A DNA stretch of 32,000 bases from Gottschalkia acidurici 9a (lineage in GTDB: Bacteria > Bacillota > Clostridia > Tissierellales > Gottschalkiaceae): the NCBI RefSeq assembly GCF_000299355.1, contig NC_018664.1, forward strand, positions 2,991,993-3,023,992. Reading direction: 5' to 3'. This document shows positions 9,292-24,304 of this stretch, piece after piece (positions within the stretch are counted from its first letter, which is position 1; the number at the start of each line of letters is the position of its first letter). The notes below the pieces were generated by a model. The model was not told where the DNA came from. It saw only the letters and a program-made list of their open reading frames with translations, and did no database searches. The position numbers and the translations under genes are program-made.

Positions 9292-9367
9292 TGGTGACCC
9301 ATCCGCGACTCGAACGCGGGACACCCTGATTAAAAGTCAGGTGCTCTACCGACTGAGCTAATAGGTC
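9292..9367 (-). tRNA. tRNA-Lys (UUU)
   Basis: 76 nt. Sense GACCTATTAGCTCAGTCGGTAGAGC..CCTGA-CTTTTAA-TCAGG..GTTCGAGTCGCGG..CCA. Confidence 0.9.
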
Positions 9368-10299: not shown

Positions 10300-11637
10300 C
10301 TATTGATTCTCTGCATACCTTTCCATGTTCAAGAATTTAGTATATTCACCCATAAATACTAAGTCTACAGTTCCAATAGGACCGTTACGATGTTTTGCAA
10401 TTATAACCTCTCCTATATTTTTCTTTTCTGAATCTGGATGATAGTACTCATCTCTATATAAAAACACAACTATATCCGCATCTTGCTCTATTGCTCCAGA
10501 CTCACGTAGATCTGATAGAATTGGTCTATGATCCGATCTTAACTCTGGCGCACGTGATAGCTGTGATAAAGCCACAACAGGGCAGTCCATTTCTTTAGCG
10601 AGACCTTTTAGTCCCCTAGATATATTAGATATCTCTTGTTGTCTATTTTCATTTCTTCCGTCTCCAGACATCAGCTGTAAATAGTCAATCATTACTAGGT
10701 CTAATCCTTTTTCAATTTTAAGTTTTCTACACTTTGCTTTAAGTTCCATTAAGGTTATTCCCGGGGTATCATCTATATATATTCCTGCTTGTGATAATGG
10801 CCCCATAGCTCTGACTAACTTTGGCCAATCATCCTCATTTAACTTCCCGTTTATAATTTTTTGTAACTCAACATGAGATTCCGCACTTAACATACGTTGA
10901 ACTAGCTGATCCTTGGACATCTCTAGGCTAAATATTGCAACTGATCCTTTTCCTTTTAACGCAGCATTTAATGCAACATTCAACGCAAATGCTGTTTTTC
11001 CCATTGCAGGTCTTGCAGCTACTAGTATTAAGTCTGATCTTTGAAGTCCTGATGTCTTATTATCTAAATCTATAAATCCTGTTGTAAGTCCTGTTATTCC
11101 CCCAGAACTTTGAGACAACTGCTCTATCTTGGTAAAGCTATCTAGAAGTATTGTCTTTATAGACTCTAGTCCTTCTTGATTTCGCTTTTGAGTTATATCA
11201 AATATCCTTTTCTCTGCTAATTCCATTATATTTTCTATATTTTCTTCATCTTCATAACCTTTTGCAATTATGTCATTAGAGGCCTTTATAAGATTTCTTA
11301 ATATAGACTTTTCCTCTACTATCTCACAATAGTATTTCATATTTGCCGTAGTAGATACACCTTCTGATAAATTAGCTAAATACATTATTCCACCTATAGA
11401 GTCTAATGTATTACGTTTCTTTAACTCTTCAGATAGTGTTATAAGATCTACAGGCTCATCTCTTGCAAATATGTCTGTTACAGCTTCATATATTTCCTTA
11501 TGAGCTTCTTTGTAAAAATCTCCAGGTCTTAATATTTCCGTACCTGTAACTATAGCTTCCCTATCTAGAATCATAGAACCTAAAACTGATTGTTCTGCTT
11601 CTATATTATGAGGAGGTATTTTACCTAAATTCTCCAT
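10300..11637 (-). CDS. dnaB: Replicative DNA helicase (DnaB family; called DnaC in Bacillus nomenclature)
   Basis: 445 aa. PPHNIEAEQSVLGSMI N-terminus, Walker A ARPAMGKTAFALN, Walker B-region MIDYLQLM, and SQLSR...DLRESGAIEQDAD motifs. Confidence 0.95.
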   Translation of the reverse strand: MENLGKIPPHNIEAEQSVLGSMILDREAIVTGTEILRPGDFYKEAHKEIYEAVTDIFARDEPVDLITLSEELKKRNTLDSIGGIMYLANLSEGVSTTANMKYYCEIVEEKSILRNLIKASNDIIAKGYEDEENIENIMELAEKRIFDITQKRNQEGLESIKTILLDSFTKIEQLSQSSGGITGLTTGFIDLDNKTSGLQRSDLILVAARPAMGKTAFALNVALNAALKGKGSVAIFSLEMSKDQLVQRMLSAESHVELQKIINGKLNEDDWPKLVRAMGPLSQAGIYIDDTPGITLMELKAKCRKLKIEKGLDLVMIDYLQLMSGDGRNENRQQEISNISRGLKGLAKEMDCPVVALSQLSRAPELRSDHRPILSDLRESGAIEQDADIVVFLYRDEYYHPDSEKKNIGEVIIAKHRNGPIGTVDLVFMGEYTKFLNMERYAENQ

Positions 11638-12012
11638 AATTTAATCTCCTATCATCAAGTAGTATAGAGTAAAAACATTGTCTAATAAATATCATACTTA
11701 GATATATTTTTTCCATTTAGTAACTTATTAGACAAGCAATATGTGAATGAGTTAAGACTCAATTTGCTATATATCTAGATCAAATGTATAACAGATCAAA
11801 CATATATTTTGATTCTTTACCTAAATACAAGATACTAAATGCATATATTAGCAATAGTATCTTGTATTTTTACAATGGCTATCCCTATATTAGGGATAGC
11901 TTGAAAGCTAAAAATTTCACCTTATAGATTAATTTTAAGGTATTTATACTTAGTATATTATTTAAAATAAAGTTTAAATAACCAAAGTATTCTATATAAT
12001 TTAAGCTTTATT

Positions 12013-12461
12013 CTATTCTTCTGTTACTTGTATCTTCAGCTCTGAAGTAACTGATGGATACACTTTTACTTCTGCAATAGTAGTTCCCATTGATTTTATA
12101 TTTCCGCCATCAATGATAATTTTTCTCTTGTCAATTTTTATATCGTGCTCTTTTTCTAAGATTTCACAAATATCTTTACTCGTAATCGAACCGAAAAGTC
12201 TACCATTTTCTCCTGCCTTAGTTTTTATTACTACTTTAGTATTTGAAATTTTTTCTGCTAATTCTTTGGCTTCTTTAAGTTCTTGTTCTTTTTTAATTTA
12301 TCTGAACCCTTTTTCTCATTTAATTCTTTTAAATTTGCAGTATTAGCTTCTTCCGCTAAATTTCTTGGAAATAAAAAATTTCTAGCATATCCATCCTTAG
12401 AATTTACTACATCACCTTTTTTACCTAGTCCTTTTACGTCTTTTAATAGTATTACTTTCAC
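12013..12461 (-). CDS. rplI: 50S ribosomal protein L9, reading frame interrupted (0 frame to -1 frame) at an A_AAA_AAG run
   Basis: GTG 12461-12459. The 0 frame gives [39 protein letters not shown]...KLKK, then 9 codons to TAG 12260-12258. The -1 frame is open from 12288 to TAG 12015-12013 and encodes [44 protein letters not shown]...[18 protein letters not shown] (L9 linker and C-domain). The span is 449 nt, one nucleotide short of a 150-codon gene. Confidence 0.85.
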
Positions 12462-14455
12462 TATTTCTCACCTTCCTCAAGATATTCTATAATAGCTTTC
12501 TTAAGCTTTTCTTCTGCCTGCTGGATAGTAGCATTTTCTATTTTAGCTCCTGCCACTGTCATATGTCCTCCTCCTCCTACTTTTTCCATAATGAATTGGA
12601 CATTTATATCATCAGTGGATCTTCCACTTATGTGTACTTTATCACCATTCTTAGCTAATACAAAAGAAGCTACTATTCCTTGTATATTTAATAGCTCATC
12701 TGCAACTTGAGCAGCTACTAATATACCTCCATCAGTATCCTTTTCTAGCTTTGATATAGCTATTCCTTCTTTAAAAATATTAATGTTTTTTATTATCTCT
12801 CCTTTAAGTATAAAGGTATCTATGTCATTTTTAAAGAGTTGTCTAACCTTTAATGTATCTGCACCTTTTTTTCTTAAAAAGGATGCTGCTTCAAAAGTTC
12901 TCACACCTGTGTTAACAGCAAAATTCTTAGTATCTACAGCTATACCTGCTAGAAGTGCATCTGCATCAAATTTTGTCATATATATATTCTCTTCGATATA
13001 GTATAGTAGCTCTGTGACAAGCTCAGAGGTAGAAGATGCATACGGCTCTACATAAGTTAAAATAGGATCTTCTATAAAGCTTGCACCCCTTCTATGATGA
13101 TCTATTACTGCTACTTTATCAACTTTATTTAAAATTGCTGGTACTTCTGTATGCTCTGGCATATGTGTGTCTACAACTATACATATAGAAGATTTATATG
13201 ACATATTTTTTATTTGATCATAAGTCACTATATCCTCTAAATAATCAGGTTGTTCTTTTTTAAACTCTTCATATATATTTTTTATAGAGAGATTAACGTC
13301 GTTTAATACTATATAGCATCTTTTCTTTTTATTCTTAACTGCTCTATATATTCCTATAGATGCACCAAATGAGTCCATATCCCCTATTCTATGTCCCATT
13401 ATAAGAACTACTTCAGATTGATTAATAAGTTGCTTTAGCGCATATGATATAACTCTTGCTTTTACCTTTGTTCGTTTTTCTAGTGTCTTAATTTTACCAC
13501 CGTAAAAACTTAACTCATCTACATCTTTGACAACTGCCTGATCTCCACCTCTACCTAGAGCTATATCCATAGCACCCCTAGCATACTCATAAGTATCACT
13601 AAGAACCTTTCCACCGATTCCTATCCCTATGCTCAGTGTCACGGGTATCTTATTCCCTAAGTCTATATGTCGTATCTCATCTAGTATCTCAAATTTATCA
13701 TTCTCTAGGATATTAAAGTATCTATTTTCGAATACAATCAAATACTTATTTCTATCAGTCTTTTTTATAAAACCATTAACCCTTTTTGCTAGCTTATTTA
13801 GCCTCTTATCTATTTCTGCTAATACACTTGACTTATATATCTCATCCGTATCTGACATTAGTTCTTCGTAATTATCTATATAGATAAATCCAATATCTAC
13901 TCTCTCACCCACATACTTGCATTGTAGATCTATATACTCCGTTCTATCAATAAAATAAAGCATAATCATATACTTTATTTTATTGTCACTAGATTCAGAT
14001 ATATTTGCCATATTGTATAGCACATCATAAGTTCTACTTTTATGAGTTACCTGTATTGGTATGTTTTCTTTGCTTATATTTATATCTTTTAAGTCGATTT
14101 CTGGAATTATTTCATAAATGCTTTCATTAATCATTTCTTTATTCTTAAACATCTCTGATGATTTATAATTATACCACACTATTTCATCATTATTGTCTAT
14201 CATTATTAGAGGAGTTGGCATATTTCCAATTGCATAGTGAGTTGCTATATCTATTTCTTTATTTCTCTTTTCTATATATTTTGAAAGTTCTCTATTTCTA
14301 TTAATCTTAATTTCATACAAATACAAAACTAGTATTATTATCACTATTCCTAACAGACCTTCGTTATAACTATATTTCATAGATAATATCGAAATAACAA
14401 AAGCTAGCATTACTATATAAAATCTATAGTCTGTGAGTAAGGAACCTTTCTTCAT
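12461..14455 (-). CDS. gdpP: GdpP/YybT-type membrane DHH-DHHA1 phosphodiesterase (cyclic-di-AMP phosphodiesterase family)
   Basis: 664 aa. Two N-terminal TM helices, a PAS-like region, a degenerate GGDEF region, a DHH motif (VIDHHRR), and DHHA1 with GGGH near the C-terminus. Sits in the conserved position between the yybS-like gene and rplI. Its TAG stop overlaps the rplI GTG by 1 nt. Confidence 0.85.
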
Positions 14456-24228: not shown

Positions 24229-24304
24229 TGGTGATCCATCCGCGACTCGAACGCGGGACACCCTGATTAAAAGTCAGGTGCTCTACCGACTGAGCTAATA
24301 GATC
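24229..24304 (-). tRNA. tRNA-Lys (UUU)
   Basis: 76 nt. Differs from the 9292-9367 copy by one compensatory acceptor-stem pair (C-G to T-A). Confidence 0.9.

Follow-up and report, generated by a model that had tools for sequence, protein, structure and literature searches.

A one-base frame break in rplI of Gottschalkia acidurici 9a is probably a 454 homopolymer undercall

Introduction

The gene encoding ribosomal protein L9 (bL9, rplI) is interrupted in the deposited genome of Gottschalkia acidurici 9a. Its N-domain is encoded in one reading frame and the remainder of the protein in the -1 frame, and the switch falls at an A_AAA_AAG heptamer. The locus therefore raises the question of whether the break is a site of programmed frameshifting, a genuine mutation of the strain, or a fault in the sequence record. 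The A_AAA_AAG heptamer is intrinsically shifty in E. coli, where AAG is decoded by tRNA-Lys with the anticodon UUU. Homopolymer runs, on the other hand, are miscounted by 454 pyrosequencing. An earlier description of the locus (the original prediction) considered a homopolymer sequencing or assembly error to be the simplest explanation, and put forward, as speculation, an autoregulatory frameshift. Here, the locus was analysed within a stretch of 32,000 nucleotides (the window), together with the remainder of the genome and the corresponding locus in related genomes.

Results

Reading Frames and Neighbourhood of rplI

The following features make up the split gene:

12291..12461, minus strand: N-terminal part of rplI in frame 0, 57 codons before the break, Pfam Ribosomal_L9_N
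12289..12294, minus strand: A6 run in the sense orientation (plus strand, T6), one base fewer than the A7 of relatives
12288..12294, minus strand: A_AAA_AAG heptamer in the X_XXY_YYZ phase, a by-product of the change from A7 to A6
12013..12288, minus strand: -1 frame encoding the linker helix and C-domain of rplI, 91 codons followed by TAG 12015-12013, Pfam Ribosomal_L9_C

The 0 frame starts at a GTG (12461-12459, minus strand), comprises 67 codons, encodes the L9 N-domain and is closed by a TAG at 12260-12258. In the -1 frame, no stop codon occurs between 12288 and 12016, and a TAG at 12015-12013 closes it. On the sense strand, the junction reads GAT AAA TTA AAA AAG AAC (12302-12285). When the two parts were joined, with an X at the break, the resulting translation was 149 aa long and aligned without gaps to the 149-aa proteins of relatives. 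It matched both L9 domains of Pfam above the cut-off, with Ribosomal_L9_N at residues 1-47 (87 bits) and Ribosomal_L9_C at residues 63-147 (94 bits). The coordinates given in the original prediction, its 67-codon 0 frame and its -1 continuation were all re-found in the window sequence. The in-phase heptamer (12294-12288) is likewise present, and the claim that a -1 slip would give a seamless 149-aa L9 agrees with a joined protein that is collinear with relatives and carries both domains.

The genes on either side of rplI are the following:

12461..14455, minus strand: GdpP-type DHH/DHHA1 protein, 664 aa, upstream gene, identity taken from the Pfam matches of its collinear counterpart in contig L021 (see below)
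10300..11637, minus strand: dnaB-type replicative helicase, 445 aa, intact, downstream gene, identity taken from the DnaB and DnaB_C matches (Pfam) of its collinear L021 counterpart

The TAG stop of the GdpP-type gene overlaps the GTG of rplI by one base. The Firmicute-type order rpsF-ssb-rpsR ... gdpP-rplI-dnaB is present, and the open reading frames of the window run collinear to the genes annotated in L021. Among close strains, no other part of the region is as prone to indels as the spacer between rplI and dnaB (window 11790-12000). This spacer contains an 8-bp deletion at 11996 in the strain referred to below as X1, and indels of 16 bp near 11801 and 1 bp near 11916 relative to L021.

rplI in Close Relatives

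The public sequencing run closest to the window's genome shares 0.71 of the sampled words with it and represents a different strain (X1). A 3476-nt Logan contig of this run covers 11920-12700 and is approximately 99% identical to the window, from which it differs over this interval by seven substitutions and the 8-bp intergenic deletion. It also carries one more T behind 12288, corresponding to A7 on the sense strand, and encodes an intact 149-aa L9.

A protein search returned a further 149-aa L9 (P0001), with two residue differences to the joined protein of the window and the sequence KLKKEQ over the break. This protein is encoded by an ENA MAG contig of 10.6 kb (L021; 93.9% identity to the window) and by a Logan contig (L022; 94.4%). 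At the junction, both contigs read GATAAATTA, followed by A7 and then by G. The alignment to L021 over the full 10 kb (94.0% identity) contained seven indels, and the rplI A run was the sole indel within a gene. In the out-of-frame C-part of rplI, 14 codon differences from L021 were synonymous and one was non-synonymous, which indicates no decay of this part. Judged by this pattern, the C-part has been translated for essentially all of the divergence from L021.

Among 41 related genomes searched, rplI was located in 36. L9 was intact, as a single open reading frame of 148-150 aa, in all 16 species-level relatives with a readable locus; the nearest species representative encodes a 149-aa L9 that aligned without a gap. 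The closest named relative by protein search was Gottschalkia purinilytica, which has also been given as the nearest relative of strain 9a (PMC3519856). An exact look-up of the 67-aa stub and of the DnaB protein in a public gene index returned no match, and pattern scans of JGI metagenome contigs and species-representative genomes for the junction with either A6 or A7 returned none.

In the A7-versus-A6 comparison proposed in the original prediction, three independent assemblies of relatives (X1, L021 and L022) thus carry A7. From these alignments, TTA AAA AAA GAA is both the ancestral and the within-species state, with the window one A short. The A7 of relatives speaks for the ancestral state and not for the state of strain 9a itself. 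The original prediction had stated that independent assemblies with seven A's would make the break a plain assembly error; such assemblies were found for close relatives and not for strain 9a.

Origin of the Assembly

The genome to which the window belongs comprises 3,105,335 bp plus 2,913 bp, with a GC content of 29.9%. The published chromosome, plasmid and GC figures of Clostridium acidurici 9a (now Gottschalkia acidurici) are identical to these; that genome was sequenced using 454 Titanium chemistry and assembled with Newbler, with Sanger sequencing used for gap closure alone (PMC3519856). The genome paper lists 17 putative pseudogenes; it makes no mention of rplI, frameshifts, coverage or homopolymers, and its supplements contain no pseudogene list (PMC3519856). 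The rplI lesion is a single-base indel, lies inside a homopolymer and occurs in an assembly without orthogonal polishing, which are features of a 454 homopolymer-length error.

Other Split Genes in the Genome

The whole genome was scanned for pairs of same-strand open reading frames in different frames, in which each half outscored the other five frames under a codon model and no start codon was present in the second half. The six-frame codon-score filter replaced a plain scan for staggered pairs, which was noisy mainly because of antisense shadow frames. A split was counted as homopolymer-linked if an A/T run of at least 5 or a G/C run of at least 4 lay in the zone permitted for the shift. 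This applied to 13 of 20 split pairs, with 5.4 expected by chance. One added base was needed to restore the frame in 12 of these 13 (binomial p 0.003), and the direction in the pairs without a homopolymer was 3:4.

Besides rplI, at least seven genes are split at A/T runs of 5-7, each needing one added base. Translations with an X at the break were compared with Pfam, and a single domain spanned the break in six other genes, listed first below; the pilin follows:

G000:C1:275927-276645: TsaD-family protein (L024), A5, Pfam domain spans the break, one base to be added
G000:C1:1497687-1498918: D-Ala-D-Ala carboxypeptidase, PBP5-type (L031), A6, PBP5_C spans the break, one base to be added
G000:C1:1620159-1621720: RNase Y (L032), A6, Pfam domain spans the break, one base to be added
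G000:C1:1623174-1624453: CinA (L033), A6, Pfam domain spans the break, one base to be added
G000:C1:2020872-2021719: DUF364 protein (L034), T6, Pfam domain spans the break, one base to be added
G000:C1:2310673-2311118: C_GCAxxG protein (L036), A5, Pfam domain spans the break, one base to be added
Genome position 1465281: PilX-like pilin, A7 run, one A short, direction confirmed

RNase Y is called as a protein of 402 aa in this genome, compared with 509-526 aa in relatives. A search with its C-part returned proteins of at most 87% identity, together with the truncated call of the genome itself. The split RNase Y and CinA genes lie approximately 2 kb apart.

In four further cases, a Pfam domain was found on one side of the break only: a Cu_amine_oxidN1 protein (L023), a radical SAM protein (L028), a YceG fragment (L030) and a double FecCD locus (L025). 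The last of these (G000:C1:430748-432879) contains two FecCD permease domains of 352 and 356 codons in different frames, with T5 at the join and a second half without a start codon. It is either a fused FhuB-like gene with a one-base shortfall or two genes with an unusual start. The scan also returned a pair of 114 and 309 codons in a -1 arrangement at an A5, in two identical copies on the minus strand (G000:C1 ~35874-35949 and ~1573184-1573259). These resemble an IS3-type transposase carrying the programmed frameshift that is usual for such genes.

Heptamer, tRNA and Stimulatory Elements

Several properties of the rplI site would suit recoding. The heptamer is in phase, a -1 slip on it yields the seamless protein described above, and AAG is decoded through wobble, which is also the case in E. 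coli. The genome has four tRNA-Lys genes, each with the anticodon UUU; a tRNA-Lys(CUU) was not detected, so AAG is read in this way throughout the genome. Two of the four lie in the window:

9292-9367, minus strand: tRNA-Lys, anticodon UUU
24229-24304, minus strand: tRNA-Lys, anticodon UUU

The heptamer itself is commonplace. In-phase A_AAA_AAG occurs in 428 copies in the 1992 intact long open reading frames of the genome, and it arises automatically when A7 loses one A. Its presence is therefore uninformative, in line with the caveat of the original prediction that the motif is no independent evidence for recoding. No stimulatory stem-loop was found 3' of the heptamer: the 88 nt downstream folded at -4.6 kcal/mol, compared with a shuffle mean of -5.7 kcal/mol (z +0.54), and the lack of a strong structure noted previously was thus reproduced. 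The AAGGG located approximately 12 nt upstream is a weak Shine-Dalgarno (SD) match, and the K-K-G residues that it encodes vary among relatives. The out-of-frame arrangement is not conserved, since rplI is in frame in the 99% identical strain, the 94% identical relatives and all 16 species-level relatives with a readable locus.

Discussion

The A6 of rplI is best explained as a 454 homopolymer undercall that corresponds to no real feature, and we place the probability of this reading at about 0.85. The true sequence would be TTA AAA AAA GAA, that of an ordinary bL9 gene, and the deposited assembly, being built from 454 reads alone, would be one A short. An assembly of 454 reads only, combined with the tendency of this chemistry to miscount homopolymers, would account for the missing base, and that single omission would be sufficient to produce the switch of frame, the stub of 67 codons and the slippery heptamer in phase. 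We infer that the base is absent from the record and not from the DNA of the cell. The site is most probably neither selected nor regulatory.

The pattern across the genome bears directly on this assignment. Lesions of the same kind in rny, the TsaD-family gene, cinA, the carboxypeptidase gene and rplI, taken together, make a systematic undercall the economical reading. It is very unlikely that all five genes would carry real lesions of this kind at once in a free-living, readily cultured bacterium. With A7 in relatives, a 454-only assembly and a recurring shortfall of one base, the explanation that the original prediction had regarded as simplest is supported.

The next reading to be weighed is that the A6 is real and reflects a recent one-base deletion in strain 9a, arising by slipped-strand mispairing in the A7, perhaps during decades of laboratory passage. 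The result would be a plain loss-of-function allele, giving either an rRNA-binding N-domain stub or no stable L9. A7 runs are natural hot spots for indels, and the undecayed C-part is what would be expected of a very young mutation, the age of which would correspond to at most the ~1% divergence from the X1 strain. A delta-rplI strain of E. coli is in use and bL9 is dispensable there (PMC6815119), so a real lesion in rplI would be tolerated, and this counts against an artefact. However, such a deletion would have to coincide with single-base deficits of the same kind in RNase Y, the TsaD-family gene, CinA, the carboxypeptidase gene and others, in a genome known from 454 data only, and we consider it improbable.

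A real A6 that is bypassed during expression was also considered. Full-length L9 would then arise either from ribosomes slipping to -1 on A_AAA_AAG or from slippage during transcription of the A run, and we regard this as very improbable. In a variant of this proposal, the allele would be young, accidental and leaky and could form a self-correcting loop. Cells without bL9 show raised -1 frameshifting on a slippery heptad placed in cis (PMC6815119), and, as ribosomes without bL9 slip more, the synthesis of L9 would rise when L9 was scarce; we give this variant hardly any credence. An unstimulated heptamer would supply only a few percent of a protein that is needed in stoichiometric amounts by the ribosome. 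Appreciable transcriptional slippage needs runs longer than A6, so that the run in rplI is too short for this route. Programmed or autoregulatory frameshifting in rplI, as speculated in the original prediction, is not supported and is very unlikely, given an arrangement that is not conserved even within the species, no downstream structure and a commonplace heptamer.

With a 454 undercall as the preferred reading, rplI is an ordinary gene here and the biological significance of the break is most likely none. The finding matters for curation: this is a reference genome, by its contig sizes the 2012 assembly of C. acidurici 9a, with one-base homopolymer shortfalls, in which housekeeping genes appear as pseudogenes. 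The affected genes include those for L9, RNase Y, CinA, the TsaD-family protein, the carboxypeptidase and the pilin. Until the genome is resequenced, scans of it for recoding, phase variation or gene loss will meet recurring false leads. If recoding were nevertheless real, L9 would be the first known frame-maintenance protein to rely on frameshifting for its own synthesis.

The site can also be compared with known systems. In E. coli dnaX, an A_AAA_AAG heptamer is preceded by an SD-like element and followed by a stem-loop, and the shift yields a second, shorter product. The heptamer in rplI is identical and has the same phase, and the genome likewise has one tRNA-Lys species, with the anticodon UUU. 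The rplI site differs in having no downstream stem-loop, only a weak AAGGG upstream and an arrangement that is not conserved. Moreover, the shift in dnaX provides an extra, shorter product, whereas in rplI it would be needed for the sole functional one. The +1 frameshift in prfB (RF2) is autoregulatory and conserved across many phyla, and is stimulated by an SD-like element together with the poor context of its stop codon. The likeness to rplI is conceptual, in that the synthesis of a translation factor depends on the recoding event that it controls, but the arrangement in rplI is not conserved, has no downstream stem-loop and is preceded by a weak SD match only. In the insect endosymbionts Buchnera and Blochmannia, frameshifts in poly(A) tracts are reportedly rescued by transcriptional slippage. 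Those genes are likewise out of frame at an A run; however, their tracts have ~9-10 A or more and their genomes are reduced and under weak selection, whereas rplI has an A6 in a free-living bacterium with a 3.1-Mb genome.

A different kind of precedent is provided by C. beijerinckii NRRL B-598, in which 23 'pseudogenes' were one nucleotide short in homopolymers relative to the transcripts, a shortfall that the authors attributed to pyrosequencing (PMC5975590). There, RNA-seq data of the strain itself revealed the missing bases, whereas the call made here relies on relatives and on the pattern across the genome. The two cases are alike in a shortfall of one nucleotide in an A/T homopolymer of a conserved gene, in the 454 origin of the data, and in the involvement of many genes in the same direction.
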